Source: an uncultured bacterium (GTDB lineage: Bacteria > Omnitrophota > Omnitrophia > Omnitrophales > JACQLI01). From it: a stretch of DNA of 64,000 nt. A program made the position numbers and the translations under genes. Positions 1,624 to 29,397 of the stretch are shown one piece after another (the first letter of the stretch is position 1; the number at the start of each line of letters is the position of its first letter). Under the pieces are notes generated by a model. It was not told the DNA's origin. It saw nothing but the letters and a program-made list of their open reading frames with translations, and made no database searches. The stretch is taken from NCBI GenBank assembly GCA_964372875.1, contig CAYJTB010000001.1, forward strand, positions 27,860 to 91,859. The letters run 5' to 3'.

Positions 1624-1636
1624 TTAGAACCGGCTG

Positions 1637-3279: not shown

Positions 3280-3280
3280 A

Positions 3281-3394: not shown

Positions 3395-3413
3395 GGAAGG
3401 ATAAAGAAAAACT

Positions 3414-3803: not shown

Positions 3804-3841
3804 GGTTTCGTTAACGAAAAGGAGAATCATTTTAGAAAGTT

Positions 3842-4842: not shown

Positions 4843-4886
4843 AGATAAAGCACCTAACATTGTTAGGATTCTAAGGAGGAAATTCA

Positions 4887-5879: not shown

Positions 5880-5888
5880 GAAAATTTC

Positions 5889-6485: not shown

Positions 6486-6521
6486 CCGAGGGCCTTGTTG
6501 ATCCCTCTTCTCGCAGAACCC

Positions 6522-7688: not shown

Positions 7689-7746
7689 ATAGCCCCTTTC
7701 CCCGGTCCCTCATCCTTCACCTGTTATAATCTTCTAGAGATTTACC

Positions 7747-13558: not shown

Positions 13559-15036
13559 GGAGAATCCTTGGAGGCCGCGGAGGCGGAAACCCAATCATCT
13601 ACCAACCGGGGAAGAATATTTGCCGGCTCGAAAAGCTGGATCCGTGACAATCGGCGGGTAAGGGGATCCGCAAAATAAACAAACCCCCGTCTTTCATCCA
13701 AAGCAATTTGAGGGACTCTTTTTGAAATTTGGAAGAGAGGAACCGCTTGGCCATTGCCTTCAAAATCCAACACCTTTACCCAGCCGCCTTCTACAAATAA
13801 AAGATAATTGTCATTGTAAAACCAAGTGAGATTAGAAATTTTTTGCTCTCCCTGATAAATTTTTCGGGGGGAAACGCCGGTTTGGAAAAATTCTTTTTCC
13901 GGTTCACGCTCAAAATCGACCAGCCAAAGTTCAGAATCTTTCCGGTAGACAGCCCGCCTGTTGAAAACGGCCGTGACCACTTCCTCCACTCTCTTGTCCA
14001 GGTAATAGGGAAGCCGGTTGGAAAAAAGCTTGCCTTGATCCGACAAGAAAAGAGCAAACGCCTCATGAAGCGGAGTGAAGATAAAAGGCCGGGAGAGAAA
14101 ATAGAAGGAATAGCGTTCCCCCTCGTCAGGACCGAAAATAAGGTGCGCCTTGGCGGCCGTGCCCAATAACGTTTTCCGGATTTCCCCTTTTTCAGTTAAT
14201 TCGAATAAACGTCTTCGGGCATCCATCACAAAAAGTTTGCGTCTGTCCGTGGTATAGCCCCGAATCCCGCCCTGCACATCAAAGAGAGGAAACCGTTCTT
14301 CAAAATCCATTTTTTTGAGGGTATCGCCTTGAAGATAAAAGAGTGCATTTTTTTGAGAGGGGCCCCAACGAAACTTATCGAAGGGTTCCTGGAGACTTCC
14401 AGCAAGCGGAGTCAGTTCCATGGGACTCAGGAATTTCACAAGAAAAGGACGAATGCCTTCTTTTTGTTTCATGAAGGCCACGGCCTTTTCGCCTAAGGGA
14501 TGCATCAGGACTTCTCCCACTGGGAAATCATATTCGCCTGAAAAATTGGGGAAAATAGGCTCGAGTTGATTTCGCTCAGGTTCAAAAAGATAGAGCCCGG
14601 AGACGTGATCGCCTTGAAGGACTACAAGTTTTCTTGTCTGTGCAGCGTGCCAGATTTTTGTGATGGGAAAATCCGTGAGCTTCTCCGAATCAAACTGAGT
14701 GGGGAAGAGCAAAATATTTTCAAAAGAAAGGACCTTATCGGCTTTGACCTCCACTTGTTTTTGCCAAGGATGCATTCCCGGCAGGCTCAAGTGAAGGTTA
14801 TAAAAACCGGATTTAAGATTACGAATGACGACAGGGGTGGTGTCTTTCAAGACCCGGTGATTGAGCTCAACCTGGGCTTGGGAGGGGTGTGAATTAAGGC
14901 TGATCAGGCCGGTGAGGAGAAGCTTGGAATGGCTGGGGCTGAAAATATAGCCCAAGGCATAGAGCACGGTCAAAGGTGCTATCACAAGGTAGGCTACGGT
15001 AAAAACCAAGAAGATTGCTTTACGTAAAATTCCCAT
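13555..15036 (-). CDS. membrane-anchored PEGA-domain protein, function unknown
   Basis: N-terminal TM helix, then PEGA-like beta-sandwich (AQVELNHRVLKDTTPVVIRNLKSGFYNLHLSLPGMHPWQKQVEV); translationally coupled to the GT2 gene. Confidence 0.6.
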   Translation of the reverse strand: MGILRKAIFLVFTVAYLVIAPLTVLYALGYIFSPSHSKLLLTGLISLNSHPSQAQVELNHRVLKDTTPVVIRNLKSGFYNLHLSLPGMHPWQKQVEVKADKVLSFENILLFPTQFDSEKLTDFPITKIWHAAQTRKLVVLQGDHVSGLYLFEPERNQLEPIFPNFSGEYDFPVGEVLMHPLGEKAVAFMKQKEGIRPFLVKFLSPMELTPLAGSLQEPFDKFRWGPSQKNALFYLQGDTLKKMDFEERFPLFDVQGGIRGYTTDRRKLFVMDARRRLFELTEKGEIRKTLLGTAAKAHLIFGPDEGERYSFYFLSRPFIFTPLHEAFALFLSDQGKLFSNRLPYYLDKRVEEVVTAVFNRRAVYRKDSELWLVDFEREPEKEFFQTGVSPRKIYQGEQKISNLTWFYNDNYLLFVEGGWVKVLDFEGNGQAVPLFQISKRVPQIALDERRGFVYFADPLTRRLSRIQLFEPANILPRLVDDWVSASAASKDSP

Positions 15037-15085
15037 GTTGTTCTAACTCCCTATTGGGCCTCATTTTATGCTACTTGGGGGTCAT

Positions 15086-15114
15086 TTGACAAGTTACGTT
15101 CCAGAGGGTATCTT
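15086..15114 (+). promoter_or_regulatory. candidate sigma-70 promoter for the giant ORF
   Basis: TTGACA, 17 nt spacer, TATCTT, about 200 nt upstream of ATG 15316 in a 280-nt divergent intergenic region. Confidence 0.35.
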
Positions 15115-15213
15115 TTGTTACAGTGAAAGAAACTCTTAAGTGAATGTTCCTAAGGGGTTAGCACCTCGACTCTATTGATTTTTTTGGGGTATGCTCGGTG
15201 CTATGGTGAGCGA

Positions 15214-15242
15214 GATTGAAATTGGCGGTGCCAATTTCAATC
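15214..15242. promoter_or_regulatory. 13-bp-stem perfect hairpin/palindrome in the giant-ORF leader
   Basis: GATTGAAATTGGC ggt GCCAATTTCAATC; could be an operator or an RNA hairpin. Confidence 0.5.
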
Positions 15243-15315: not shown

Positions 15316-18300
15316 ATGACCCTACGCGCGAAAAATTTTTATCTACGCACTGTCGCAGCTTTCACCGCAATCATTTTTTGCTGGAATAGCCTTGCTTGGC
15401 CGCTTCCCGAGGTTGCGGTTCCCCAGGCCGGCAAAACTTTCGATCTCATTCCAAAAGAACTCGGAACCGTCGATGAATACGAACTGCCGGACGCTTCACA
15501 TTCCGCACCCTTTGTCATACATATTCAAGATCTCCACGCAGCACCCGAAGCTCAAGAAAAAATCCTGGACATTCTTAAATTTTTACATTCAAAAAAGAAA
15601 CTTCTCGTAGCGGTCGAAGGAGCCGCCGGAACGCTTCATCCTGAGTATTTAGATTTCTTTCCGCAATACCCGCGTGTCACAAACGCACTCGTTCAAGATT
15701 TGGTAAGTGAGAGCATGCTTACAGGGCCGGCGTTATTCGCATGGGAGAGGTATGAGAGTAAGCCGTCATTGCACCCGTCATTGCGAGGACGTAAGTCCGA
15801 AGCAATCTCAAATCCTAGATTGCTTCGTCGGGCCTTTGGCCCTCCTCACAATGACAATAGCGTCCAATTCATAGGCGTCGAGACGCCGCGTCTTTATCGC
15901 GAAAACCTTAAAGCCTATCGCGATTTTTTCCAGGATGAAGAAAAAAATCAGCAGGATTTGAAATCTTTCCAAACCTCATTGGAATCGGCCCAAACGAAGA
16001 TTTTCAATCCTGATTTGAGGAAATTTGTCCAAGAAGTCCAGAGACGTAAAGATGGAAAGTTTCAATCGGGAAAGGCCTCGCCCGATCTTGCGGCTTACAT
16101 TCGCTTTCTCGCGGATTCAAGCCGAGATCATTTGGGAGTTGATCTAAGAGATAAATTCGAACAGATCCGTTTTCCCAATCTAACCCGCATTCTTTTCTTG
16201 ATGGAATTCGAATCAAAAATCACTGCTCACCAGCGCCGGGTTCTGCATTCTGAAATTGAATCCAAAAAACTTTTTGATGAAATCACACTTCTCGAAACAA
16301 GACTGCGGCAAATACTGGTTAAAAAGCCGGAAGAAACAAAACTTCTTGAGATCCTTGATGATTTCAAGTTGCTTGAGAAGTTATTCCATTTGGAACTGAC
16401 TCGCGAGGAATATTACCAAGTCGTCAACAGGGTTTTGGAAATCAATCCGTCGAATTTACATCAGCGTTTGGCAACCATTGCTGAGATTGCTTCGACCTCG
16501 TCTGAAATGTTGTCTCGCAATGACGCCGATTACGAAACTGCTCTGCGTTTTTACCGCTTAGCCATTCGCAGAGACAAAGCCCTTCTTGAAAATGCCTTGC
16601 GAGAGGCAGCTAAAACGGAGAACTCGTCTCAAGAAAAACCACTCATCGTTCTTGTTACCGGCGGTTTTCACACTTCAGGGGTGAGCGAGCTTCTCAAAGA
16701 AAAGAAAATTCCTTACGCCGTCGTCACGCCTGCCTTAGCAAAAACCAAAGCCAATCAAGACCAATATCACAAACTGATGTCCGGCAAAATGTTCGCCAAA
16801 GAAGCCTCAAGCGCTTCGCCCAAGAATAACAATCTGGTGTGGGCGCAGATTCTTACAGCAAGAGATCGGTACCCGAGCCTCAATTCCGACGAGGATCAGC
16901 AAAAAATATTTTCCCACGCGACTGAAAAGTCCGGCGAGTATTTTCGAAAATTCTATCCCCAAATCTCCGAACCCAAACTGCAAGAACTTTTATCTCGCCC
17001 CGCCGGATTCTTTTCGCAAATCTCCCGTTCCGAATTGCAAAGTAGGAGCCAGATTACGAATTCGGCCATCGATGGCCGAATTGGCGGGAAAAGGGTACTG
17101 CCTTCACGTTTTCCGCGCTCGGAAGTGCGGGCGGTAGAACAGCGATTAGAAGTCAGTGGTCAGAAGACAGAAGGCTGGAGTTCAAAGATAGGAAAAATTA
17201 TCAGGAATGGCAGCGATTTTGGACTATCGAGGGTTTTCCAGCGTAGTCAGGCGAAGAATTATCGAATTCCAAGCCGCTTAGAAAAATCTCGAGGTGAAAG
17301 AATAGAAATCTCTTTAAAGGTTTTCATCGATAGCAGATCGTGGTCTCCTGTGACAATGATCGTTGCTTTAGCTGAAAGAGCGCATTCCAGCACGGCATCA
17401 TCGTCCGGGTCACGGCAGGCCTTTACCTTTGTTTTAGGTTTGACTATCAAAGCTTTCATATGGATCAATGAAATCATTTCTTCAAGCATTTCAGGCGTGA
17501 TCCATTTCTTGAGTTTAGGTTTTTCCAGTGAGCGAAGAAAGTCTTCCAGTAAGGCCGGAGATAAAGCCGCAATGAACTTGTCTTCTTCCAGGGATTCCAG
17601 AATCGAACGGCAAACGCCCGGAAAGGCGAGTCCGCTCACCAGCACATTCACATCAAGAACGACCCGACGCATACCGTTCCTGCCGGGCTTGCTTGACCAG
17701 ATTCAGAAGCTCTTTTCGGCTGAGAGGGTGTTTCTTTCGGCTTTTATCAACTTTGCGGGTCAGAGAACGGAAGCGTTCTCCCCAGGTCTTATGTTCAAGA
17801 CGACGGATCAGGGTAATGCGGTCACGGGATTTCAATTGATTGATCATGCGCTCAATTTGTTGAATGTCTACTTCCACGGCAATCTTAGGCATAGGATTTT
17901 ATCCTCCTCTTCGAATCAGTATAATTTATCGGCCTTGGCGGATCAAAATCAAAACATTTCTTCCGTTAAGCCTTCTAAGCAAAGTTCGACAGAACCGAGC
18001 CGAAGGGCCGCTTCCGGCCCCGAGAGCCGTCAGTCTCCGATCCTAAGCGTCGATAGACCCGGAGGGGCCCGTGGGGAGGTGCGGGCAAAAGAACAGAGGT
18101 CAGAAGTCAGAGAGCAGAGGATAGAGGTCATAAGTCAGAGATCAGAAGGAAAAATTACTTCGAGTGGCGGCGATTTTGGTAGCGTTCGATCAGGTACATC
18201 ACGCCCCAGGCAAGAAATATCAAAACCAAAACAAGAGACACGGTTATCACGTTTTATTTACCCCTTTTCCGAATCTCTTGGGCAAGCCATCCAAGAAATA

Positions 18301-21300
18301 AGAATCATGATGGCTACAATTATAGAGAGAACAGCCTTGGCCTTCAATGAAGTTTTCCAAATGTTTTCGCTCACCACGAGGGCTGCTAATACAAGGCTCA
18401 CCGCCCTCATGATCCCATCAGCAAACAAATTCCGTCTTTTAGATGGAAAAAGGGTTTTCATCTCAATGCTTCAAGCGCCGCAACCTAACACAGGATTAAT
18501 TTTAAGTCAAATATTATTTTTAGAATATGAAATATCCCGCCGCTCGGAGGTGCGGGAATACATCTCGGATTGGACGGTCTCGACCTTGGAAACGAAACAG
18601 CCGGTTTTGGCGGCGGCATTTTCAACGGACGGGAAGATTTTGGCCGCGGGCGCAAGAAACAACGTTCATCTGACCAACGGAGACCTTCGGAAATGGTCCG
18701 TGGAATTTAGGGCCCACCGCAACGAGATTGCAAAACTTATTTCTTTTCAAAGAGGAAACAGGAATTTTTTCGCCACAGCCAGCAGAATCGGCTCGATCAG
18801 CCTATGGAATTCAAACGGCGGGCTGATCCGGCGGCTGGAGCAGCTTAATCCGGAGGATTTCCAACCTGTGTTAGGGTTATCCGTTTCTAAAAATGGAGAT
18901 TGGCTGGCAGCCACGGACATGGATGTAATGAAGATCTACGATCTTACGGGAATGAGTTCCCCTAAAACAATTCCCATCACGGATCAAAGTCGCAATCATT
19001 TCGTTCAATTTTCTCCCGATGGGACGAGCATCGCCTCCACTTATTACGGCGAAATCCGAATCGAGGATATCAAAACCGGAAAACTCCGCGCGAACCTTCA
19101 TCACGAAGCTTCTCTTAAGAAGTCCATGGATACGTCAGCCTTGGCCTTTTCCAAAGGCGATGATGTCGCCGCGGCCTCCACCGACGGAAAAATCAGGATC
19201 TGGAGATGGAAAGGGGAAAGGCAGCCTCAGGTTTTAGATTTTTTGTCACCAGCCCGCGAAGCAAGCCACCTCATCTTTTCACCTAATGGAAAACGTCTCG
19301 CCGCGTCTACGGCAGATCAGATCGAAATATGGAAACTTAATGGAAAAGTGTGGCGTCATGAAGAAACAATCTATCCGCATCTGGACGCCGTGACAGAAAT
19401 TTTATTTTCACCGGATGCAAAACGGTTTATGGCCGCAGGCATTTGGCACGGAAGCGGGAGAGTCCGAATTTGGTCGAAGGAAACGCCGGCAAGGGCCGAA
19501 GTGCGGACCGACGGCATCCCGACAACCTGGTTCCGGATTTTTAACAGGCTGGATAACCTTAACCGGGAAGTGTGGAAACAAAAAGATTTAGACATCATTG
19601 ACCTGACCAACCAATTGGAGAAAAAACTCATCAGCTTATTCGGTTCGCAGCTCCTTTATGGAATCTGGACTTGGAATACTTCAGTTCGGGAAGTACGGTT
19701 TGGCCTTAGGTCGGGGCCTTTAAGTTTTGAATTGACTGCCAACCCGCATCAGGAAATCCCGGAAAGAGAAATTAAAAGGGGATACACGGTAACAATGAAT
19801 GCGATGCTTACTTCCGCTGCGGAAAGTCAGCATGCAAAAAAATGGGGAGACAGCGAACCGGAAGAAAGGGGAGAGACTTTGCTTGAAATTCCTATTGCAG
19901 AGATCGACCGCTCCCAACCTGTTATCTATTTCGGCAGTTTCTATTTTGATACCGACAAGGAAAAGAAAGAAACGATCATCAAACAGGAAATCCTTTTCCT
20001 TCCCGGAGAGGAGAGAAATTATCAAATCTATATTTGGCATAACAACGCCCTTGAAAAAACTACCTTAGAAAAAGAAGGCGGCAGGACCTACGCGGTATGG
20101 AGAACGCCGGAAGCCGAACCTTCCCTTTCGTTTCAATATGTGGCACTGCATGATGCCCAAGGCAAAGACCTGGGCGAAATAAGCCGGCTCATTCTGAAAG
20201 CCGGAAACTCGGAAACTTACAGGAACAACCTTCAATTTCTTTACGGTCCTATTTGGAGAGACGAAACGTCGAGTTTTTCTCATGGTAGCAGAACTTCCGT
20301 AAAACCATCGGTTTTTGAAGACCTTATCTCTGCTGCGCCGGGCAAAAGGATCGCTGCGCTGCTGGGTCTAGCGATTGAATATCAATATGTCCCGGAAGGC
20401 CAAGTATTCAGCCGGATGCTGCTTACCGAATTGGAAAAATTGGAGGGCCTGCCGTACGGACGAATCGCAGCGCTTCGAGAAATTGCGGAAATGAGTCCCG
20501 AGGAAGCCCATGAAAGATTTAAAGATCCCTACGACCAGCCCAGCGCGATCCCGGCCGTCATGACCCTCGTGGCCAGCCTCGCCCCGCGTCTCCTTGAAAG
20601 AATGAAAAATTGGGATCAGGAATTTTATGAAGAGCTAAAAGGGGTCCTGCAAAAACCGGATCTCAAAACTTTATTCGAGGAAGGGGAGGTCAAATTTTAT
20701 GAGGCGGATCATCTCTGGGCCGCTTCAGATAACCGATCTTTTTTCCCTGGTGTTGTCGCCTTTTCAAGGAGTAAAGACCGGCAAATCATCGTCCCAATCT
20801 ATTTCGGCAACGAACCGAAAGATGAAGACGGCAAAGTCTGGTTTAAAATCTTGGACGCCACATCGCTTGGAATCGAGAATTCAAATGCCGCCACTTACCA
20901 AGTCTACGACCACATGCTCGGGGAATTTTATAAAACACTTCATTCAGGGGAAAAACTTTATCGAGAGGGTTGGAGCATCGGCATTCCGGTCGTCCCGGGA
21001 AAGCTGGACCGGGCCGGGTTTATCCAAAAGGGACGGCATGTTCAATTTTTGGAAATGCGAAGGACCCAATCTCTAACGACGGCGACCCGGATCGGCTTGC
21101 CGGAAAATCTTGTCAAGACACAAGGGATTCTTACGGATCTTTTGAGAGAAATGAGTAAACTCGAAATTTATTTTTTTATCAGTAAGACCGGTGCAACCGA
21201 TCGGCGCATGGTGCCTGTGGATAACGTTTATGAATTTTTTTCATCCTATGCGGGGAAAAAAGGCGAGCATTGGAATGAAATCGTAAGTGAGCCCCTTCAA

Positions 21301-24300
21301 TTGACCGTGAGCTCTCCGGGTTTTAAGCGCCAGACGCTTCGGCATGCGCTTCGGATGATGCAGGAAGCGCTTCAACTTACTTATTCTTTCCCCGGCACTT
21401 TGAAAGGAAATGACCCCCACCTTTCTTTTTATCACGATAAATTAATCGAAGAGACCCAACTTTTAAAAACATCGGATCAAACCGGAAAGTGGGCCCATGT
21501 CGAATTCGAAATCGCAAGCAGCCATTTTGAAATGCCGGATCATTGGGATCAGCCCGCCGAAAATTCGCTGCGTCAAAGAATTCAGGCGTTGCGCGAGGCA
21601 TTAGAAATTCCCTTTGTCCTTATGTTAAAAGCACCTTCCGGCGCCAAGGATCCTTATCACATCGAGCCGGTGGGAAACCTTCACCAGCGGCTTCCTTATT
21701 TTGTTCTCAAAGATGATTTCTTGAAAAATCCTCACGATCCGCGTTTTCCCTATTTTTCAAAAGGCGCTCAACTCAGTTTCGGACTTGAAGCACCCATGGA
21801 TTCGGCAAGATTGGAACAAGTTAGAAATATTCTGGTTGCAAGTCTTGAAGGCCGGATGTCGGCAGCTACCCTTAAGCGTGCCATTGAAGTGACGATGCAT
21901 CAGTGGCAAAGAGAAGACTCCTTCTTTTCCGAATCCCGCTCCGAGGCACGCCGTGTGCCTCGAACGCTTGCGGTGCACCCGGTGCGGTTGGCACCGGGTA
22001 CTCCGCTATACCCGGACCGGTCGGGTCCGGGTGTTGCGGTGCAGAGTCATTGGAACTCTGCCCGTTCAGAAGTTCGAACGGAGAAGTCAGAACGTCTAAC
22101 TCGTTCCAATGCAGGCGAATTACTCAAACCGCGCAGATACCTCAAGAATAAAATCTACGGAATTGGGCGCATTACCGCTGTGGAAGGAAAATTCGGGGGA
22201 AAAGATCCTCAAGGCTCCGTCGAGGTCGCTTTTTTAAATAAACACGGATTCGAAGAAACGAAAGAATTTTCCACCTGGTCACTTTTTCAATTGCCGGAGC
22301 AAAATCCCGAAGAAGCTTTCTTTTCCGTTACCAGGCAAGAAATCGAAGATTTCAAGAATCAAAAAAGACAAGGTCAAGCAGCTTATAAAGAAGAAATAGA
22401 TAAAAAACGCATAGCCCAACGGGAGGGCAGGCAATGGATGGAAGCACAAAGCCCCACATTTTCTCTCTACGATTCGCCTTTCAGCGCAAGAGCCGGAAGG
22501 CCCCTGGCCGCAGATTATAGAAAATTGATGCAAGGAATCCAAGACCGGGCACAGGGCGAGTATCACTTGGGCAGCGCCTCCATCGTGGAACGAAAAATTT
22601 TGTTTGAAATGCTGGGCACTCGCCTGATCCCTAAGACGAACCAATCGGAAACCACCCTTCGGATCAACTTAGGCCGGAGAAAAAAGGAATTCGCAGAGAA
22701 ATTGAAAACGATTTTAGATGAAACGGGCGGGCTAAGCGCCCGGGCCGTGAGCGAGGCGGAAGAGAAAATCATGTCTCCCAAAGATAAGTCCCGTGCGCTT
22801 TCAAGCGAATGGCTGAAATTCCGGGATCCTGTTACCGGTAAATTTGCGACCGAAAAAGATATCAAACGCTGGATCCAGAATGCCATTCCGATCGTTGAAA
22901 GAATCTTAGAATATGAAGTAAAACTTCTCAAATTAGAAAAACAAATTCAAATTCATCCGCGGCCTCTTGCGCGATCCGAAGTAAGGGCCGCTGAAAGTTC
23001 TCCCACAAAGAAGGTCGCATTTTTTAACCTCAGGACCGCGGACGATTCATCCATTGTTTTGCCGCAAAGGATGTCCTATCTTCCCGTCGAGCAGCGGTTG
23101 CCTGACTATAGCGCCTGGCGGATTCGAGTGGGAAGGGAATCGGGAAATTTGCACGCATTTTTGAGAGATGTCCTTGGCCCACGCTGGCATTGGAATGTCA
23201 AAGGAGAAACTAAGGCTTATTTTCTTTATAAAAGTCTCCCGAAGAAATTCAAACAATTTATTGGTAAACGCAAACCGCCGACAGGTTTTGATATGGAAGC
23301 GCTTGGACTTTTGGTGGTTAATCGAAGCGACATTTTTTACATTCCGATGGAAGAAACTGTGAATGAATCCGTGGTAACGGTGTTAGACAAAAATGACCGG
23401 GACGCGATCAATGAATTTATAAGCCATCATGCAATGATCCAAACGGTGCCGCAGAATATCCGGATCTTTCCTCCCGTTCGATATGAGAGCGTCAAGTTTG
23501 GATTGGGAGAGGATCCCGTGTCGAGTCCCAAGCCCGGCTCCATCGAAGTTGTTTATCACCCCAGGCTCATGGTCAATGATCTTGGCAAGGCAGATAAAGA
23601 AATTATTTTCGAAACCAGTTTCGACTTAACACAATTAAGGCCCCGGAAAAAGATTACGGCTGAACTTGAGGGAAGATTCTATCAAGAGTTAAAGTCCAGG
23701 CTGCGCAATACTTGGCAGATCCGCATAGGCAACCGGACCGTGGAAATGCCTCGGGCAAAAGATTTGCCGGCTAAAGTTCAAGACGTGGAAGAAATTTTGT
23801 TGCCGGGGAATAACCGTAAAACGGCGTCTTTACATTTCAATGATGCGGTTTCGTTCTATCTCGACGGAATTTTGATGCGCTCCAATGTGCCTGTACCCAA
23901 GGATATTCACGCCTGGATTTTTTGGAAAACACGGATTCGTTTTAACGATCAGGAAATCTCGGTTGAAACGACCGAAGGCAACAATGTATTAACTTATCGA
24001 ACAGATGAAACCGGTGAACATCTGCGGGTCAATGGCGAACCGACAGACAATAGTGTTTTGCAAAACATGATTCGTCAGATGGGCTCCGCTTTTTCAATCT
24101 TGGCCTTTCAGATGGCGCGCGATCCCGAACAAACGGATTATCTTCGCGAATCCGGCAAAGAAACGATTGATGATGAATTCGACCAATGGCTCGGCCGTTC
24201 TGAGGTGCGGGAAGAAGGACAGCCTGCACAAAATGGGAATGGCCACGCTATCCAGAAAAAGCAAAGAGGCCGCGGGTTCAGGACTAAAGAAGAAGCCTTG

Positions 24301-27300
24301 CAAGCCCTTGCCGAAAGACAGGCAAAAGGTCTTTCCAGTGATCCAAAATCCCTTCAAAGGCATTTAGCCGAAGGCGGCAACCCTACTTTGCTCACCTTCA
24401 TTTATCGATGGAATCAAAAGCACCCGGAAGAACCCATTGAAATGAAATTGTTGCCTACCCGAACCCACAAGTACGAATCCAAAGGAGAAATTATTGAAGC
24501 GCTGGAAAAAAGGCGGCTGGAAAAAGGAGAATCAGCCAATTATCGAATGCAATTACGCCTTCATATAGAAGAAGGCGGCGATCGTACATTGTATCAAGCG
24601 GTTCTGCGTTGGAATCATGATCATCCAGAGGATTTGATCAATCTTCCTTTGGATCCCCATGTGGCGCATGGTCAATTGGGAAAATACCAGACCAAACAAG
24701 ACGGCTTGAATACTTTGAGTGAAAGGAAAAAACAAGGTCTGGGAAATTCAACCAGCGATCTCAGGCAAACTAAATCGGATGGGGGGGATTGGCCTCTTCT
24801 TGTTTTTATTCGCCATTGGAATAAGAAGCATCCGAAGGATCGCATTGCGCTGGAGAATGCTGACCAAAACTTCAACCGCCTGAGTCCTGTTGCGGTCTGG
24901 CATTCCCAGACGCAGGATTTCAAGACGACCGATCAAAAAAGAACCGAATGGTGGCGGGCCTTGCAGGAAGAGGCGGATCACGAAGCTGGAAAAAGGCTGG
25001 TCGAGTCTTTTATTCCTTCAGTCAATGAGATTGCCCAAAGGTTAAGCGGGGGGAGAGATTCGCATTATGAAGCGGATTTAATCCAAAACGGAAATATGAT
25101 TGTCCTTGAGACGATCTATCCCGAGCGTAAAGAAGACCAGTGGAATCCGAGCCGCGGGGTTTCCATGACCGAATTTGTCGAGACCCGTTTAAAGAAAGAG
25201 ATGAGGCACCGGACATTGCAAGAGATACGTTCCAGCGGGAGATTTTCCATCGACGAGCCCTACCGTTTTTCCAAAGGCAGAGAAAAGGAATGGCAGGTTC
25301 CCAGTTATGACGCCCAACCGCAGGAAGTCCGAATTAACAACTTGGCTGATGAGAGGGACAAGCAATCGGGCCTTCCCGTGATTTTGTTTGAGGAAAAACA
25401 TCAAATCGCCCGCGAGATCGGAAAATGGTTAATCAAAAAAGGTTTTCTTAAACAGGTCAAGCAGGAAGGGATTCAGAACCTTGCCGTTTCAATGATCGGA
25501 AGCCTGGGAGTGCTCGGATCGGCAGTCAGAGATAAAAGCGATCTTAATTTGATGGTTGTTACCGACGCAAATGAGTCGCAGGCTGAAGCCCTCGCAGAAA
25601 AACTTGCGCAGTGGATCGGGGGCCGATATCACGAGCCGCAGGATTCGGAGCCTATCCGCATCTCCGTAGGAAAAGAAGGTGATTATGAGCAAGCCATAGC
25701 AGACGGAAACGGCTTCATTAGCTTACTTCAAAAACACAAGGTGGGCACAGACCCCATCAAAGGAATTGCAAGCGTTGAAGTGATTGGAATTCCCGACGAA
25801 GACAACTCGTTTTCCGAAGACTCTCTTACCCGGCAAAAAACGCGGGCGGCTTTTCACCTGGCCTTCCAAGATCCCCGGTTAGCCGAGCAGGCAATCAATG
25901 GGATCCTTGTCCTTGAAAATGCCAAGGGGGCCGCAGAGCGTCTTGCCCAAAAATTGCCGAGCGATCAGGAAAACCTTTTCGGTTATTATGAAAAATTTCT
26001 TGCCAAACAAGCCGCCAATCTTCGCAAGTTGCAGGAATCTTCCATTGACTCAAAAGCAAGGGCCGAGGTGCACCCGAATCCGACCGATTCGGGTACTCCT
26101 CAGTCCTCGCCCGATCAGGCGAGGGCCGAGGTGCGTTCTTCTTTGCCGGAGCAACGGGCGGAAAAGAAGTTAGAAACAAGAAAGTTGGAAATTGGAGCAG
26201 GAATCAGCGGGCTTAGCGGCCGCGTTGAAACATCTAATGGGCGTGTTTTTTCCGGAAGTGATCGATTGCCAATAAAGTCAACGAGATCGCCGCAAAAATC
26301 AGAATGGCAAGGACAGCCGTCATTTAGTCTTCCTCCTTTGAGGAGCTTGCCGCAAAAATCAAGCCCAAATAAAAGCATATCACGAGTCCTCCTAGAACGA
26401 CAAGCCGCCATTTCAGGGAGAGTTTTAGGAAAAGCTCTCCTCCCAGAACTCCTGCTAATAGGACCAAAATCACATGCTGAAACAACTTTGCCAGCCAGTC
26501 CCTCCGGGCCGTTGTCAGGAATATACTTTTCACAAAATAAAATATATAGCAATATCAATTCAGAGTTAAGCGATTTTTCCCGCTCCGATGGTTCGACAAG
26601 CTCACCATCGGTCCTGAGCAAGGCCGAAGGCCGCGTCGAACGCGCCGAGGTGCACCCGAATCCGACCGATTCGGGTACTCCTCCGCACTCACGCCCAACC
26701 GGCGTGAGTACTGAGGTGTCCCTGGCGGCGCCGCCAGGGGCTCCTCCGTCCTCGCCTGAACGGGCGAGGGCCGAGGTGCGGGCAAGCGTTGAAGAAATAA
26801 TCAGGAAGCAGATGCTTTCTGGAGATCTGAAGGCCTTTGAAAAGAATTTCGAATCTTACGACCGTGAAAAGGCCTTTGAACTTTTAAATAGCATTTCGAA
26901 AATTGCCAAGGAAATTTCAGAAAGGATCCGCAAAGGAGAAGAAGAACTGATGGTAGCTGCAAACAATGGCCAAAAAATGCAAGAAATCATTGACGCGGCT
27001 AAAATCTTGGAAAATTTCCCAAATGATAAACAAATACATGGTGTCCACCTATCAGCTATTATAAATTTACAGGAAATCTTCAATCTTACACCAAAAGCAT
27101 TGCCAAGATATCGCAATCTCTTAGAAGCTATTGTTAAACACGCGTCAAAAAAAGAACAACCTCACCAGGCAGCAGCTGAAATTATCGAGAGCTTTGAAGG
27201 AGAACAGCACGCTGATTCCCAACAAGATCAATTTCAAAGGAACGAAGCACTGGAATTTTTAACCCTAGATCTGGATGAAAAAGTTTTTAAAGAAACAGTA

Positions 27301-28719
27301 ATAAAAAATCATTTTCTGACCGCGCTTCATCATTTCATTTGGGAACACAGCGACTTTGAAGATGCGAAGAATTTAGCCAGAGAACTCGGTAACTTGAGCC
27401 TAATCAGTTCTTTGTTGGGTGAGCCCCTCAGTAAAAGACAGGCCGCTTTTTATAAGCGCGCACTTTTGAGCTCTGACCGCACGCAGCAGAAGATCGCGCT
27501 TGGCTTCTTCGAGACTTTCCCTGATCTTGAAAAAATGGACTGGAAAGAGGAAGTCGTTGGTAAACTTAAAGAAATCGTAATGGATGAATCCGAAGATTCT
27601 GAATTTAGAAAATATGCCTTTGAAGCGTTGACAAACAATATTCTTCTTATAGAGCCAGCCTTTTTGGCGCCTTATTTTAAAGAGCCGCGCAGCCAACGGT
27701 TTCGAATCATTTCTTCGGATAAAAAAGGCGCTCGGATTTTATTTTCGGTTCTTCAGAAGAAATTTGGGTCGCCTTTAAAGGACCCGCCCCTTTTTAAAAA
27801 AAGTTCCGAGTCCATCATTTTATCAGGAGAATTTACGACAGGTCTGAGAAATGCTGCCATGTTGATCCGATTTGTAAGGCAGGCCTACGGCCGGGAGATA
27901 TCCTTTGATGAGTCCCGCGGCTTGCTTAAAGAGATGAAAAAGAAACAAGACAGATCCCGGCGTTCCGAAATACGGAGTGAAAGCTTGGATTCGACGTGGG
28001 AGTTGAGGGAGGATGCGAACAAAGGAAAGCTTGCGGAACTTGGAAAACAATTTGCGCCGATGATTGAGAGTCTTTGGAAACGCTCCGAGGTCAGGCACAG
28101 GCTTGCGACGGACGGATTTTTGAATCTTTCAAAGCTGATTGAAATTCCCAAAGCCGAAGCGGCTGAACCTGCGATTGTAGCTGCGCTTTTGATCCGTGCA
28201 GAACAATCCCAAACCGGAACGCCGGCTTTGGACAAACATTTGCAAGTGTGGCAGTCGCGCATGGGAATCAGTTCGGTTGCTAAAGAAAATGAAGTCGTAA
28301 TCCTCTTAGAAGGTGCGGCGTTTAAACTCGGACTCTTGGCTGCGATCGACGGAATTAGCCCGGCAGCTCCGAAGATCGGCGTTGTGGCGCCCAAGGCTTA
28401 CCATTCTTTAGTGGAAGAAGTCAGAAGCGGTCTTAGAACCGGGCAAGAACTGATCGAAGGGGAGAAGCTTCCCGAAATTTTAAATCAAATTGCTCAGATG
28501 AAACAGAAGCCAAGCCGCTTAACGATTTGGGCTTCGAAGGAAGACTCGTTCTTAACAGCAGCGTTCATCAAACGTTTTCTTAAAGATCCAAACCTGAATG
28601 TAGAAGTAAAGACCGTGACGCAGCGCGATCTTGACCGCGCCAACGCGTCTCACCCCGGCTTTGCGGAACGTATCAAGAACTTCCTCGCCGCCGTCAAATC
28701 CCTCAGCATTTCCGCTTAA
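15316..28719 (+). CDS. giant modular ORF, 4,467 codons, function unknown
   Basis: Single uninterrupted frame; AGGAAAG RBS; N-terminal TM helix; protein-like composition in most modules; junction peptide conserved with synonymous codon variation. Caveat: three segments look non-coding on this strand. Confidence 0.7.
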   Translation: MTLRAKNFYLRTVAAFTAIIFCWNSLAWPLPEVAVPQAGKTFDLIPKELGTVDEYELPDASHSAPFVIHIQDLHAAPEAQEKILDILKFLHSKKKLLVAVEGAAGTLHPEYLDFFPQYPRVTNALVQDLVSESMLTGPALFAWERYESKPSLHPSLRGRKSEAISNPRLLRRAFGPPHNDNSVQFIGVETPRLYRENLKAYRDFFQDEEKNQQDLKSFQTSLESAQTKIFNPDLRKFVQEVQRRKDGKFQSGKASPDLAAYIRFLADSSRDHLGVDLRDKFEQIRFPNLTRILFLMEFESKITAHQRRVLHSEIESKKLFDEITLLETRLRQILVKKPEETKLLEILDDFKLLEKLFHLELTREEYYQVVNRVLEINPSNLHQRLATIAEIASTSSEMLSRNDADYETALRFYRLAIRRDKALLENALREAAKTENSSQEKPLIVLVTGGFHTSGVSELLKEKKIPYAVVTPALAKTKANQDQYHKLMSGKMFAKEASSASPKNNNLVWAQILTARDRYPSLNSDEDQQKIFSHATEKSGEYFRKFYPQISEPKLQELLSRPAGFFSQISRSELQSRSQITNSAIDGRIGGKRVLPSRFPRSEVRAVEQRLEVSGQKTEGWSSKIGKIIRNGSDFGLSRVFQRSQAKNYRIPSRLEKSRGERIEISLKVFIDSRSWSPVTMIVALAERAHSSTASSSGSRQAFTFVLGLTIKAFIWINEIISSSISGVIHFLSLGFSSERRKSSSKAGDKAAMNLSSSRDSRIERQTPGKASPLTSTFTSRTTRRIPFLPGLLDQIQKLFSAERVFLSAFINFAGQRTEAFSPGLMFKTTDQGNAVTGFQLIDHALNLLNVYFHGNLRHRILSSSSNQYNLSALADQNQNISSVKPSKQSSTEPSRRAASGPESRQSPILSVDRPGGARGEVRAKEQRSEVREQRIEVISQRSEGKITSSGGDFGSVRSGTSRPRQEISKPKQETRLSRFIYPFSESLGQAIQEIRIMMATIIERTALAFNEVFQMFSLTTRAANTRLTALMIPSANKFRLLDGKRVFISMLQAPQPNTGLILSQILFLEYEISRRSEVREYISDWTVSTLETKQPVLAAAFSTDGKILAAGARNNVHLTNGDLRKWSVEFRAHRNEIAKLISFQRGNRNFFATASRIGSISLWNSNGGLIRRLEQLNPEDFQPVLGLSVSKNGDWLAATDMDVMKIYDLTGMSSPKTIPITDQSRNHFVQFSPDGTSIASTYYGEIRIEDIKTGKLRANLHHEASLKKSMDTSALAFSKGDDVAAASTDGKIRIWRWKGERQPQVLDFLSPAREASHLIFSPNGKRLAASTADQIEIWKLNGKVWRHEETIYPHLDAVTEILFSPDAKRFMAAGIWHGSGRVRIWSKETPARAEVRTDGIPTTWFRIFNRLDNLNREVWKQKDLDIIDLTNQLEKKLISLFGSQLLYGIWTWNTSVREVRFGLRSGPLSFELTANPHQEIPEREIKRGYTVTMNAMLTSAAESQHAKKWGDSEPEERGETLLEIPIAEIDRSQPVIYFGSFYFDTDKEKKETIIKQEILFLPGEERNYQIYIWHNNALEKTTLEKEGGRTYAVWRTPEAEPSLSFQYVALHDAQGKDLGEISRLILKAGNSETYRNNLQFLYGPIWRDETSSFSHGSRTSVKPSVFEDLISAAPGKRIAALLGLAIEYQYVPEGQVFSRMLLTELEKLEGLPYGRIAALREIAEMSPEEAHERFKDPYDQPSAIPAVMTLVASLAPRLLERMKNWDQEFYEELKGVLQKPDLKTLFEEGEVKFYEADHLWAASDNRSFFPGVVAFSRSKDRQIIVPIYFGNEPKDEDGKVWFKILDATSLGIENSNAATYQVYDHMLGEFYKTLHSGEKLYREGWSIGIPVVPGKLDRAGFIQKGRHVQFLEMRRTQSLTTATRIGLPENLVKTQGILTDLLREMSKLEIYFFISKTGATDRRMVPVDNVYEFFSSYAGKKGEHWNEIVSEPLQLTVSSPGFKRQTLRHALRMMQEALQLTYSFPGTLKGNDPHLSFYHDKLIEETQLLKTSDQTGKWAHVEFEIASSHFEMPDHWDQPAENSLRQRIQALREALEIPFVLMLKAPSGAKDPYHIEPVGNLHQRLPYFVLKDDFLKNPHDPRFPYFSKGAQLSFGLEAPMDSARLEQVRNILVASLEGRMSAATLKRAIEVTMHQWQREDSFFSESRSEARRVPRTLAVHPVRLAPGTPLYPDRSGPGVAVQSHWNSARSEVRTEKSERLTRSNAGELLKPRRYLKNKIYGIGRITAVEGKFGGKDPQGSVEVAFLNKHGFEETKEFSTWSLFQLPEQNPEEAFFSVTRQEIEDFKNQKRQGQAAYKEEIDKKRIAQREGRQWMEAQSPTFSLYDSPFSARAGRPLAADYRKLMQGIQDRAQGEYHLGSASIVERKILFEMLGTRLIPKTNQSETTLRINLGRRKKEFAEKLKTILDETGGLSARAVSEAEEKIMSPKDKSRALSSEWLKFRDPVTGKFATEKDIKRWIQNAIPIVERILEYEVKLLKLEKQIQIHPRPLARSEVRAAESSPTKKVAFFNLRTADDSSIVLPQRMSYLPVEQRLPDYSAWRIRVGRESGNLHAFLRDVLGPRWHWNVKGETKAYFLYKSLPKKFKQFIGKRKPPTGFDMEALGLLVVNRSDIFYIPMEETVNESVVTVLDKNDRDAINEFISHHAMIQTVPQNIRIFPPVRYESVKFGLGEDPVSSPKPGSIEVVYHPRLMVNDLGKADKEIIFETSFDLTQLRPRKKITAELEGRFYQELKSRLRNTWQIRIGNRTVEMPRAKDLPAKVQDVEEILLPGNNRKTASLHFNDAVSFYLDGILMRSNVPVPKDIHAWIFWKTRIRFNDQEISVETTEGNNVLTYRTDETGEHLRVNGEPTDNSVLQNMIRQMGSAFSILAFQMARDPEQTDYLRESGKETIDDEFDQWLGRSEVREEGQPAQNGNGHAIQKKQRGRGFRTKEEALQALAERQAKGLSSDPKSLQRHLAEGGNPTLLTFIYRWNQKHPEEPIEMKLLPTRTHKYESKGEIIEALEKRRLEKGESANYRMQLRLHIEEGGDRTLYQAVLRWNHDHPEDLINLPLDPHVAHGQLGKYQTKQDGLNTLSERKKQGLGNSTSDLRQTKSDGGDWPLLVFIRHWNKKHPKDRIALENADQNFNRLSPVAVWHSQTQDFKTTDQKRTEWWRALQEEADHEAGKRLVESFIPSVNEIAQRLSGGRDSHYEADLIQNGNMIVLETIYPERKEDQWNPSRGVSMTEFVETRLKKEMRHRTLQEIRSSGRFSIDEPYRFSKGREKEWQVPSYDAQPQEVRINNLADERDKQSGLPVILFEEKHQIAREIGKWLIKKGFLKQVKQEGIQNLAVSMIGSLGVLGSAVRDKSDLNLMVVTDANESQAEALAEKLAQWIGGRYHEPQDSEPIRISVGKEGDYEQAIADGNGFISLLQKHKVGTDPIKGIASVEVIGIPDEDNSFSEDSLTRQKTRAAFHLAFQDPRLAEQAINGILVLENAKGAAERLAQKLPSDQENLFGYYEKFLAKQAANLRKLQESSIDSKARAEVHPNPTDSGTPQSSPDQARAEVRSSLPEQRAEKKLETRKLEIGAGISGLSGRVETSNGRVFSGSDRLPIKSTRSPQKSEWQGQPSFSLPPLRSLPQKSSPNKSISRVLLERQAAISGRVLGKALLPELLLIGPKSHAETTLPASPSGPLSGIYFSQNKIYSNINSELSDFSRSDGSTSSPSVLSKAEGRVERAEVHPNPTDSGTPPHSRPTGVSTEVSLAAPPGAPPSSPERARAEVRASVEEIIRKQMLSGDLKAFEKNFESYDREKAFELLNSISKIAKEISERIRKGEEELMVAANNGQKMQEIIDAAKILENFPNDKQIHGVHLSAIINLQEIFNLTPKALPRYRNLLEAIVKHASKKEQPHQAAAEIIESFEGEQHADSQQDQFQRNEALEFLTLDLDEKVFKETVIKNHFLTALHHFIWEHSDFEDAKNLARELGNLSLISSLLGEPLSKRQAAFYKRALLSSDRTQQKIALGFFETFPDLEKMDWKEEVVGKLKEIVMDESEDSEFRKYAFEALTNNILLIEPAFLAPYFKEPRSQRFRIISSDKKGARILFSVLQKKFGSPLKDPPLFKKSSESIILSGEFTTGLRNAAMLIRFVRQAYGREISFDESRGLLKEMKKKQDRSRRSEIRSESLDSTWELREDANKGKLAELGKQFAPMIESLWKRSEVRHRLATDGFLNLSKLIEIPKAEAAEPAIVAALLIRAEQSQTGTPALDKHLQVWQSRMGISSVAKENEVVILLEGAAFKLGLLAAIDGISPAAPKIGVVAPKAYHSLVEEVRSGLRTGQELIEGEKLPEILNQIAQMKQKPSRLTIWASKEDSFLTAAFIKRFLKDPNLNVEVKTVTQRDLDRANASHPGFAERIKNFLAAVKSLSISA
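15765..15855. mobile_element. MITE-like element inserted in-frame in the giant ORF
   Basis: GTCATTGCACCC GTCATTGCGAGG...AAGCAATC..GATTGCTTCG...CCTCACAATGAC; translated SLRGRKSEAISNPRLLRRAFGPPHND. Confidence 0.6.
16475..16524. repeat. possible degenerate/short copy of the same MITE family
   Basis: CCATTGCTGAGATTGCTTCG...TCTCGCAATGAC, translated ...MLSRND; left terminus is weak. Confidence 0.3.
17059..17082. repeat. 24-bp perfect palindrome
   Basis: AATTCGGCCATC|GATGGCCGAATT, 34 nt upstream of the first RSEVR junction. Confidence 0.9.
17259..17672 (-). CDS. PIN-domain ribonuclease toxin (PIN_3/VapC-like)
   Basis: VVLDVNVLVSGL..., CRDPDDDAVLECALSAKATIIVTGDHDLL: acidic PIN residues in the canonical order; 20-nt overlap with the upstream small gene. 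Confidence 0.9.
   Translation of the reverse strand: MRRVVLDVNVLVSGLAFPGVCRSILESLEEDKFIAALSPALLEDFLRSLEKPKLKKWITPEMLEEMISLIHMKALIVKPKTKVKACRDPDDDAVLECALSAKATIIVTGDHDLLSMKTFKEISILSPRDFSKRLGIR
17653..17892 (-). CDS. putative antitoxin of the PIN toxin
   Basis: 79-aa basic protein directly upstream of and overlapping the PIN gene; strong RBS; family not recognised. Confidence 0.6.
   Translation of the reverse strand: MPKIAVEVDIQQIERMINQLKSRDRITLIRRLEHKTWGERFRSLTRKVDKSRKKHPLSRKELLNLVKQARQERYASGRS
18070..18556 (-). mobile_element. antisense cassette 2: junction, 3'-flank repeat, small membrane protein
   Basis: Same build as cassette 1; bounded by junctions at 18070 and 18541; minus-strand TTGACT -35-like box upstream of ATG 18461. 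Confidence 0.4.
18258..18461 (-). CDS. small two-TM membrane protein (paralog of 26324..26533)
   Basis: 67 aa with two hydrophobic helices. Shares MK(T/S)(L/I)F...RR..(F/L)A...LVL.A.V...SLK pattern with the other cassette protein. Confidence 0.5.
   Translation of the reverse strand: MKTLFPSKRRNLFADGIMRAVSLVLAALVVSENIWKTSLKAKAVLSIIVAIMILISWMACPRDSEKG
18556..19491 (+). other. WD40-type beta-propeller module of the giant ORF
   Basis: Repeated units such as FSTDGKILAAG, ATASRIGSISLWN, FSPDGTSIAS, ASTDGKIRIWRW, FSPNGKRLAAS..IEIWK, FSPDAKRFMAAG..RVRIWS. Confidence 0.8.
21937..22080. repeat. in-ORF array of GC-rich hairpins at a module junction (copy a)
   Basis: CGAGGCAC/GTGCCTCG; CCCGGTGC/GCACCGGG; ACCCGGACC/GGTCCGGGT; CAGAGT/ACTCTG; CCGTTC/GAACGG; flanked by RSEAR and RSEVR codons. 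Confidence 0.65.
24274..24857 (+). repeat. three tandem ~65-aa protein repeats inside the giant ORF
   Basis: GFRTKEEALQALAERQAKGL...GGNPTLLTFIYRWNQKHPEEPI / KYESKGEIIEALEKRRLEKG...GGDRTLYQAVLRWNHDHPEDLI / KYQTKQDGLNTLSERKKQGL...GGDWPLLVFIRHWNKKHPKDRI. Confidence 0.6.
25060..25230 (+). other. sigma-70 region-2-like stretch in the giant ORF
   Basis: EADLIQNGNMIVLETIYPERKEDQWNPSRGVSMTEFVETRLKKEM resembles DLIQEGNIGLMKAV..FDP.RG..FSTYA.WWIR. Confidence 0.35.
25483..25575 (+). other. nucleotidyltransferase (Pol-beta/MNT-like) motif in the giant ORF
   Basis: SMIGSLGVLGSAVRDKSDLNLMVVTD matches the G-S-x(n)-G...D-x-D minimal NTase pattern. Confidence 0.45.
26059..26136. repeat. in-ORF hairpin element (copy b)
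   Basis: AGGGCCGAGGTGCAC CCGAATC cgacc GATTCGG GTACTCCT...CCTCGCC cgatca GGCGAGG GCCGAGGTGCGT; 39 bp (26062-26100) are repeated perfectly at 26644-26682. Confidence 0.7.
26324..26533 (-). CDS. small two-TM membrane protein (paralog of 18258..18461)
   Basis: 69 aa, GTG start, two hydrophobic helices, acidic C-terminus (SSSKEED); A/T-rich TATATT box upstream on the minus strand. Confidence 0.5.
   Translation of the reverse strand: MKSIFLTTARRDWLAKLFQHVILVLLAGVLGGELFLKLSLKWRLVVLGGLVICFYLGLIFAASSSKEED
26641..26781. repeat. in-ORF hairpin element (copy c, expanded to four hairpins)
   Basis: CCCGAATC/GATTCGGG; ACTCACGCC/GGCGTGAGT; CCCTGGCGG/CCGCCAGGG; CCTCGCC/GGCGAGG. Confidence 0.7.
26782..27960 (+). 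other. alpha-helical (HEAT/ARM-like) module of the giant ORF
   Basis: Helix-rich composition with a recurrent ~40-aa helical periodicity; judged by eye only. Confidence 0.3.
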
Positions 28720-28807: not shown

Positions 28808-29017
28808 ATGACACGAGTGACAGTTTCCCCAAAATATCAAATCGTGATCCCTAAAGAAATTAGGGAAAAGTTGGATATTCGGTGCGGACAGAAGATGGCC
28901 GTCGTAACAAGAGGGGAATGGATTATGCTGGTTCCCGATCTGCCTTTGAAACATTATCGGGGGTTTTTGAAAGGTGTGAGTTCAGAGGGGGTTCGTGACC
29001 GAAGGGACCGGTTTTGA
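28808..29017 (+). CDS. vapB: AbrB/SpoVT-type antitoxin
   Basis: MTRVTVSPKYQIVIPKEIREKLDIRCGQKMAVV: looped-hinge-helix AbrB fold motif; 4-nt overlap with the PIN gene. Confidence 0.85.
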   Translation: MTRVTVSPKYQIVIPKEIREKLDIRCGQKMAVVTRGEWIMLVPDLPLKHYRGFLKGVSSEGVRDRRDRF

Positions 29018-29391: not shown

Positions 29392-29397
29392 GATTCC

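Follow-up and report, generated by a model that had tools for sequence, protein, structure and literature searches.

A giant reading frame punctuated by a recurrent pentapeptide

We analyzed a 64-kb stretch of DNA (hereafter the window) from an uncultured bacterium of the phylum Omnitrophota, which contains a giant open reading frame (ORF) on the + strand at positions 15316-28719. The ORF runs for 13.4 kb from an ATG start, is uninterrupted by stop codons, encodes 4,467 amino acids (aa), and carries 15 in-frame copies of a pentapeptide, R[SAG]E[VIA][RH]. It is located between pdxA (10672-11721) and two minus-strand genes on one side, and a PIN gene and ksgA (29014-30312) on the other, with a promoter-like site upstream at 15086-15114. 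The window as a whole is an ordinary bacterial chromosome: it includes secY-adk-map, rpsD-rpoA-rplQ, surA-pdxA, ksgA, gatA, gatB, tsaD, and polysaccharide genes, its ORFs are of normal length under translation table 11, and Rfam identified one tRNA as its only match.

Pfam detected only a WD40 propeller (aa 1087-1376) in the giant ORF. NCBIfam and PADLOC added nothing, a PDB sequence search with aa 1398-4467 returned no match, and an exact-sequence lookup found no database record for the ORF. Codon usage, scored as a log-likelihood trained on the window's other genes in 150-nucleotide (nt) windows, favored the ORF frame almost throughout, three segments excepted. An alternative genetic code was dismissed, given that the frame contains none of the three stop codons and that neighboring housekeeping genes are normal under table 11.

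An earlier note, made from the sequence alone, had listed 15 start positions for the motif, and our six-frame scan of the window reproduced all of them exactly, in the single + frame of the giant ORF. Across 64 kb and six frames the scan gave one further match, at 39800 (-), which is unrelated. No copies were present in the window's 41 other ORFs (15,170 aa), and residue shuffles of the giant ORF (n = 5,000) averaged 0.11 copies and never exceeded 3, versus 15 in the real sequence. Because copies are rare out of frame and strongly enriched over shuffles, neither of the outcomes that the note had named as speaking against the motif was found. The motif also recurs in related genomes: ORFs headed by the same N-terminal module (N-module) hold 124 copies of R[SA]E[VIML]R in 190,030 aa, versus 37 in 2.1 million aa of other six-frame translation. 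A DNA search with the consensus 15-mer, allowing at most 3 mismatches, recovered 7 of the 15 copies, all on the + strand and in frame, together with one chance-level hit and no reverse-strand copies; the other eight depart from the DNA consensus at four or more of their 15 positions while retaining the peptide. Two local features could be taken to favor a chance match, or a DNA repeat merely read in frame: copy 3 lies within a heptamer-repeat tract, and copies 1 and 2 share approximately 100 nt of flanking similarity. With practically no copies in shuffles, other frames, or neighboring genes, and with recurrence in dozens of distant genomes that use different codons, this explanation is already refuted and we consider its probability negligible.

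The copies partition the ORF into modules, spacers, and stop-free segments (all coordinates on the + strand). The N-module (15316-17115), a signal-anchor helix plus a domain predicted to resemble EreA/ChaN/Tiki/TraB, ends at copy 1 (RSEVR, 17116-17130). A stop-free segment that is not sense-coding and contains an antisense PIN_3 pair (17131-18069) extends from there to the degenerate copy 2 (RGEVR, 18070-18084), the upstream member of a pair with copy 3 (RSEVR, AGGTCAGAAGTCAGA, 18097-18111). A second stop-free segment (18112-18540), with a weak sense coding signal and a small antisense ORF with two predicted transmembrane helices (2-TM), reaches to copy 4 (RSEVR, 18541-18555), after which a 312-aa module (18556-19491) corresponds to exactly one complete WD40 beta-propeller by Pfam. 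Copy 5 (RAEVR, 19492-19506) precedes an 810-aa module of no known family (19507-21936); the degenerate copy 6 (RSEAR, 21937-21951) is then separated from its downstream partner, copy 7 (RSEVR, 22063-22077), by a multi-hairpin spacer of 37 codons (21952-22062).

The second half of the ORF continues with a 298-aa module composed of a predicted Tudor/CarD-like barrel and helices (22078-22971), copy 8 (RSEVR, 22972-22986), a 403-aa orphan module (22987-24195), and copy 9 (RSEVR, 24196-24210). A 616-aa module with internal repeats (24211-26058), which has homologous stretches within many proteins of 2,000-7,000 aa, leads to a further pair consisting of the degenerate, upstream copy 10 (RAEVH, 26059-26073) and copy 11 (RAEVR, 26122-26136), with a hairpin spacer of 16 codons (26074-26121) between them. 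The third stop-free segment (26137-26640), not sense-coding and again containing an antisense small 2-TM ORF, is followed by the degenerate, upstream copy 12 (RAEVH, 26641-26655) and copy 13 (RAEVR, 26767-26781), which flank another multi-hairpin spacer of 37 codons (26656-26766). A 393-aa module (26782-27960) precedes the last pair, copy 14 (RSEIR, upstream, 27961-27975) and copy 15 (RSEVR, 28081-28095), whose spacer of 35 codons (27976-28080) is unstructured, and the ORF closes with a 207-aa C-terminal module and the stop codon (28096-28719).

Internal segments between copies have a bimodal length distribution, 21 of 127 being shorter than 50 aa and most of the others falling at 100-1,200 aa. 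Several units that are joined in a single ORF occur as independent proteins elsewhere, namely the WD40 propeller of the window and, in the related locus L005, two HPr units, a receiver, and a domain of the phosphoenolpyruvate-utilizing type. In L005, motif copies enclose both HPr units (105 and 119 aa) and the complete receiver domain (155 aa), which begins 12 residues past the motif. The first HPr segment aligns in register with HPr, Crh, and NPr as free-standing proteins, starting at their residue 4-5, and in both segments the phospho-His, as read from the sequence, lies 16 residues past the motif. In Escherichia coli HPr the phospho-His is at position 15; the residue after the motif therefore corresponds approximately to residue 1 of native HPr.

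Homology likewise begins or ends at the motif. Local tblastn matched window aa 1398-2212, the 810-aa module for which a word-index search found no homologues, to aa 2156-2968 of L006 (32% identity), between an RAEVR at 2144 and an RTEVR at 2984. The region at aa 3823-4220 matches an L029 module that begins right after RSEAR, and aa 2255-2557 match the proteins P0006, P0008, and P0009, in which similarity stops abruptly at ...PRPLxRSE[VA]R. The neighbors of homologous modules differ between genomes, which indicates that modules are shuffled as units. Together, the protein-sized segments, the bounded HPr and receiver units, and the abrupt ends of homology agree with the earlier claim that the motif sits between unrelated modules. 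In AlphaFold models the motif falls in tails of low confidence, outside the folded cores (predicted local distance difference test scores <50 at N-module residues 567-605 and, in a second structure model, at residues 1-16 and 314-331), and it is predicted to lie in disordered linkers.

Conservation of the peptide and its lineage variants

To compare conservation of the peptide with that of its DNA, codons and DNA variants were counted over 139 motif copies from the window and related loci. These copies comprise 119 distinct 15-mers, with all six Arg codons in use at both Arg positions, Ser encoded by TCN in 87 cases and AGY in 7, and position 4 occupied by V, L, M, A, T, or I. The positions flanking the motif carry <0.5 bit of information each, with A/S/E/T/G favored directly after it, and the motif is kept at the same junction in homologues that are only 24-48% identical. 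This codon diversity across both Arg (CGN/AGR) and Ser (TCN/AGY) classes, the low flanking information, and the retention of the motif in diverged homologues, in addition to its frame specificity, support the proposal that selection acts on the peptide and not on the DNA. Because Ser is freely exchanged for Ala, the motif is not a phosphosite.

The accompanying claim that codons are scrambled between copies stood in part. They vary as had been listed, but they are not fully scrambled: CGY-TCC-GAR-GTG-CGG is significantly preferred over the 139 copies (chi-square p of 1e-5 to 1e-12 at four positions). This bias suggests that junctions have been copied recently, or that an additional nucleotide-level preference is present. 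A group II intron was rejected as an explanation of the motif; GTGCG within the motif resembles the GUGYG 5' end of such introns, but Rfam found no more than the tRNA and the Val codons vary.

The same bias bears on the idea that the element works during translation, as a folding pause, as a Shine-Dalgarno-like GGAGGTG that directs internal initiation, or as a 2A-like skip. Segmentation during translation would benefit giant ORFs, GAG-GTG-CGG is over-used, and GGAGGT or GAGGTG occurs in 29 of 139 copies. However, GAA is the Glu codon in 60% of copies, position 4 also admits M, L, I, A, or T, and the Arg pair is kept whatever its codons. Internal initiation was rejected on the grounds that GGAGG is found in just 11 of 139 copies and that no start codon occurs at a fixed distance downstream, where Met is also not enriched. 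Nor is there a conserved upstream peptide context of the sort that 2A and arrest peptides need: 2A/StopGo peptides have approximately 18 aa of upstream context ending in NPG/P, whereas the flanks of the motif are nearly devoid of information and contain no NPGP. The two other motif classes of the family described below (xASLG and [SA][RH]FAE) bear no resemblance to a Shine-Dalgarno sequence. We regard a translation-level signal as highly improbable.

The giant ORF belongs to a family defined by its N-module, the only module that is common to all members. N-module matches in the genome collection were confined to three metagenome-assembled genomes of Candidatus Omnitrophota; a metagenome scan added 79 loci, where the module nearly always stands at the head of an ORF that is still open at the end of the 10-kb flank, after >3,800 aa. 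The first 600 residues have homologues. They include a signal-anchor helix (aa 8-26) and conserved HIQDxH, EGA, and TGGFHTSG stretches, with H69, D72, H74, and E101 invariant and GGFH in the consensus. The alpha/beta fold predicted for the module is shared with the EreA/ChaN/Tiki/TraB superfamily, whose His/Glu catalytic motifs (GxxH type) are possible counterparts of these residues. Its sequence has no match in Pfam or NCBIfam, and its profile finds nothing among PDB sequences at E <= 10.

In dozens of relatives R[SA]E(V/M/L/I/A/T)R is over-represented above every other pentapeptide. When repeated 4-mers and gapped 5-mers were counted without a preset pattern, RSE.R, R.EVR, or RAE.R ranked first in many N-module-headed ORFs, and the first motif copy of relatives always follows the N-module, at aa 540-815. 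Variants of the R-type motif (RSEVR/RSEMR, RAEVR, RSEAR, and RAETR) are lineage-specific, and an entire clade uses [G/A]ASLG (xASLG) instead. This motif is seen in L021, L026, L031, L033, L055, L059, and L061, with its Ser encoded by both TCN and AGY within one ORF of L059. A third class, [SA][RH]FAE, occurs in nine copies in P0026. In the N-module tree, R-type and xASLG-type ORFs form coherent clades that are almost mutually exclusive, and the variants follow the tree. A HMMER search with window aa 2250-3449 recovered 23 proteins, 16 of them 1,400-6,900 aa long, including P0006 (10 copies of RAEVR) and P0009 (11 copies of RSEAR), whose SecA-like, Nudix-box, and HAD-motif units, further counterparts of independent proteins, were read directly from the sequence. 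The repeated 'GLANN' of P0007 was rejected as a junction motif, since it is part of a repeated domain.

Other loci of the family show further features of organization. In L021, GASLG directly precedes a signal peptidase II unit. The N-module family also heads a second giant ORF, located upstream of the matched one, in L005 (nt 3-9626) and in L043 (nt 440-979), so giant ORFs also occur as tandem paralogues. L003 (nt 12248-15232) contains two tandem paralogous modules of approximately 497 aa each, one directly after RSELR (beginning LQPKPVEAGQVRDY...) and the other directly after RSEMR (beginning FQAKPIQAAQIRDF...); as each starts at a motif copy, the module has evidently been duplicated along with its junction.

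Antisense genes and hairpin spacers within the open frame

The three segments in which the codon-usage signal failed to favor the ORF as sense-coding (17131-18069, 18112-18540, and 26137-26640) contain genes on the opposite strand. The first encodes a full-length PIN_3 toxin (17259-17672, -; E = 8e-18), preceded by an antitoxin-like ORF of 79 aa (17653-17892, -) that overlaps the toxin ORF by 20 nt, with a promoter-like site just upstream of the pair (17946-17918, -). This arrangement of a PIN toxin preceded by a small overlapping antitoxin-like ORF (17259-17892) marks the pair as a putative VapBC-type module. Direct repeats of approximately 105 nt (17114-17222 and 18068-18179) flank the cassette. 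The other two segments encode small 2-TM ORFs (18258-18461 and 26324-26533, both -), and a third member of this small-ORF family is nested and motif-flanked in another genome (L003, 17852-18040, -). Family members from the two genomes are 62-69 aa long and have an N-terminal MKxxxxxxRR followed by two predicted transmembrane helices. An alignment search found no database homologues of the small 2-TM ORFs, perhaps because gene callers skip ORFs that are nested in a longer one.

Even across these antisense genes the + frame stays open. We resampled the four antisense ORFs synonymously, and the probabilities of retaining a stop-free + strand in the correct frame were 0.11, 0.11, 0.45, and 0.002, with a product of approximately 1e-5. 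These probabilities support the view that the frame has been kept open by selection, not by accident, in line with the earlier claim that the + frame is translated through the junctions.

The antisense cassettes have approximately 100 nt in common at their + 5' ends, including the heptamer-repeat tract that encodes copy 3. This tract, (RRGTCAG)n, occupies 17136-17177 and 18090-18145, is translated as ...QRSEVREQRIEV..., and spells RSEVR in one of its repeat frames. It could be the route by which inserted elements supply the motif, or a hint at the motif's origin.

In addition to the single junctions, the window has five double junctions whose copies lie 27-126 nt apart. In all five pairs the upstream copy is degenerate (RGEVR, RSEAR, RAEVH twice, and RSEIR) and the one bordering the following module is canonical, a pattern with a chance probability of 1/3003 in a post hoc test. 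Three of the spacers between paired copies are multi-hairpin elements, with folding z-scores of -3.4, -6.3, and -7.1 relative to shuffles. They share a hairpin (GCACCCG-stem-loop-stem-CGGGTAC; 21975-22001, 26070-26096, and 26652-26678) whose flanks are conserved and in which four stem pairs show compensatory changes between copies. The hairpin is confined to double-motif spacers of the giant ORF and had no match in 84 related loci. The spacer at 26074-26121 is bounded by identical 13-nt direct repeats (AGGGCCGAGGTGC), and short repeated spacers of an equivalent kind lie between two copies in L003.

The paired copies are also informative about a rival reading, in which the pentapeptide is an uncleaved short linear motif and the ORF product works as one chain. 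A chaperone, scaffold, membrane insertase, or modifying enzyme would dock at the motif or recognize it. Peptide conservation, disordered context, and lineage variants fit this idea equally well, as does the published view of many giants as membrane-anchored multi-domain proteins. It leaves unexplained, however, why junk, antisense, and hairpin segments are always bracketed by two copies, why conservation is higher in whichever copy adjoins the start of a module, and why free diffusible carriers (HPr and receiver) are embedded with near-native N-termini directly after the motif. We regard a docking role as rather unlikely.

A different repeat occurs both inside and outside the giant ORF. This palindromic element, which resembles miniature inverted-repeat transposable elements (MITEs) and repetitive extragenic palindromic elements, has terminal inverted repeats GTCATTGCGAGGA...TCCTCRCAATGAC and is present at 15777-15855, 34946-35038, and 36144-36299, with single arms at 16512, 29784, and 45189 (9 arm matches versus 1.46 expected). 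It lies in frame within the N-module of the giant ORF, tsaD, and the AIRC-domain ORF at 35673-36692, where it is read through as SVIARS...PRNDR-type peptides. The N-module copy (15777-15855, +) is missing from homologues, has low model confidence, and folds strongly (z -5.0). Rickettsia palindromic elements and in-frame MITEs provide an anatomical parallel, as they too are in-frame palindromic insertions that are read through; the likeness extends to the GTCATTGCGAGGA element and to the spacers at 21952-22062, 26074-26121, and 26656-26766. Unlike the Rickettsia elements, the hairpin spacers sit between two copies of a junction motif.

The repeats and hairpins invite a second rival reading, that the 15-nt sequence or the nearby hairpins are a site of module insertion, exchange, or duplication in cassette shuffling and the peptide is a harmless in-frame scar of recombination. 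Modules are shuffled among relatives as motif-bounded units, the codon bias toward one DNA consensus is significant, direct repeats bound both a hairpin element (AGGGCCGAGGTGC) and the antisense toxin-antitoxin cassette, and three junctions contain multi-hairpin elements. Against this, more than half of the window's copies (8 of 15) depart substantially from the DNA consensus, switches between Ser codon classes and between Arg codon classes occur, and the other frames and the opposite strand hold no copies, not even around cassettes with inverted genes. Of 15 junctions only 3 have hairpins, the 30 neighboring window ORFs that were scanned include no integrase or recombinase (approximately ten ORFs from 53923 on lay outside the scan), and a neutral scar would be expected to decay at the amino-acid level. 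As the sole explanation we consider recombination unlikely, although it may be true alongside a function of the peptide.

The same features recall integron arrays, which also join unrelated cassettes, toxin-antitoxin cassettes in reverse orientation among them, and have hairpin-forming sites at some boundaries. In contrast to integrons, most junctions of the giant ORF have no hairpin, and its cassettes have no stop or start codons of their own and are all in one frame. None of the 30 scanned window ORFs encodes an IntI-type integrase, a scan that again excludes the ORFs from 53923 on.

A putative cellular polyprotein

The reading that we favor, and to which we give about an even chance of being correct, is that the pentapeptide is an endoproteolytic processing site and the giant ORF a cellular polyprotein that is cut probably just after the last Arg of each copy. 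Translation would start at the ATG at 15316 and yield, from the whole frame, a single chain that would be cleaved at every motif copy, with the last Arg as the predicted P1 residue and a small residue at P1'. Cleavage would free each downstream unit with a near-native N-terminus, and the antisense-gene and hairpin segments would be excised as peptides; such junk could be tolerated because it is stop-free and has a motif copy on both sides. What suggests translation and cleavage is the polyprotein anatomy of the locus, in which independent units are joined by predicted disordered linkers and bounded by a pentapeptide that would be a lineage-specific recognition sequence. The earlier note had offered cleavage, docking, and recombination as possible functions; the sequence evidence favors cleavage, and recombination may also contribute, given the codon bias and the direct repeats around inserted elements.

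If the chain is cut, one candidate for the protease is the N-module itself, whose predicted fold family includes the Tiki and RRSP endopeptidases. A more ambitious version of the proposal holds that Omnitrophota express part of their proteome as cassette polyproteins, cut at lineage-specific pentapeptides by a co-evolving protease (possibly the N-module), and that the polyprotein genes have become landing pads for stop-free selfish cassettes, which would be removed at the protein level in the manner of a proteolytic intron or intein. The cassettes concerned would be toxin-antitoxin pairs in antisense, genes for small membrane proteins, and hairpin MITEs. Taken in its entirety, we consider this version possible but doubtful.

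Several observations weigh against processing at the motif. Some boundaries lack it: in L026, an aldolase, a sugar kinase, and a DAO oxidoreductase lie within one segment of 1,558 aa with no motif between them, and in P0008 and P0009 a decayed copy (TEEIE/TEEIK) separates a Nudix unit from the next module. Some basal N-module clades have giant ORFs in which no repeated pentapeptide is detectable. With respect to the enzyme, the N-module matches no protease family at the sequence level and exists as a stand-alone protein of 406 aa (P0005), and the scanned neighboring genes of the window include no protease other than Map. The codon preference of the motif (CGY-TCC-GAR-GTG-CGG) points to a nucleotide-level component or recent junction copying as well, and translating junk segments of 300 aa merely to discard them is costly. 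Finally, Met directly past the motif is not enriched (4 of 170 cases, p = 0.33); individual examples of what might be a vestigial initiator Met exist, and they were not used as support.

Polyprotein processing of this kind is known, and its host here would be the unexpected part. Viral polyproteins (processed by picornavirus 3C, potyvirus NIa, and flavivirus NS2B-NS3) likewise place several proteins in one long ORF with short junction peptides and lineage-specific recognition, and flavivirus sites have the basic P1 and small P1' residues that are predicted for the giant ORF. Unlike them, the giant ORF is a chromosomal bacterial locus whose modules, together with those of its relatives, are orphans, WD40, or metabolic and signaling proteins; it has no recognized protease domain, opposite-strand genes are embedded in it, and its cleavage is proposed from sequence. 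Multifunctional autoprocessing repeats-in-toxin (MARTX) toxins and large clostridial toxins depend on an autoprocessing cysteine protease, whereas the giant ORF has no C80 domain or RTX repeats (Pfam, whole ORF) and no type I secretion context; MARTX linkers are, moreover, cut after Leu and have no fixed pentapeptide. Precursors of ribosomally synthesized and post-translationally modified peptides (RiPPs) with multiple cores, such as cyanobactin PatE, resemble the giant ORF in that a short recognition sequence for processing proteases recurs on either side of their cassettes, but their products are peptides of 6-8 residues instead of whole proteins, and no RiPP enzymes are present here.

The closest relatives by phylum are the giant ORFs described in Omnitrophota as 'Archaeovorins' or 'multi-enzyme metabolic clusters', which also combine many unrelated units in one frame (10.1101/2023.11.21.568195, 10.64898/2026.06.07.730766, PMC10066038). 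At 4,467 aa, the ORF of the window is below the 10-kaa or 20-kb thresholds of these studies, including that of >=10,000 aa in the 2026 preprint (10.64898/2026.06.07.730766). Post-translational cleavage has been suspected for Omnitrophota giants (10.1101/2023.11.21.568195, 10.64898/2026.06.07.730766, PMC10066038), with cleavage points stated to be unknown, and uncertainty over whether and where the giants are cut blocks structure prediction and functional dissection (10.1101/2023.11.21.568195). The junction motif is not mentioned in the three papers (PMC10066038; 10.1101/2023.11.21.568195; 10.64898/2026.06.07.730766), and full-text searches for the pentapeptides, like searches on Omnitrophota polyproteins, turned up nothing relevant; the nested antisense genes are a further unreported feature.

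Omnitrophota giant ORFs exceed 100,000 aa at the extreme and remain an open puzzle. A lineage-specific junction pentapeptide provides concrete, testable candidate cut sites and a rule by which such proteins can be divided in silico into units, while the motif classes offer a handle on the processing enzyme through phylogenetic profiling. If the reading is true, polyprotein processing would be a gene-expression strategy of a free-standing bacterial phylum, and nested antisense genes that are now missed by gene callers would be brought to light.

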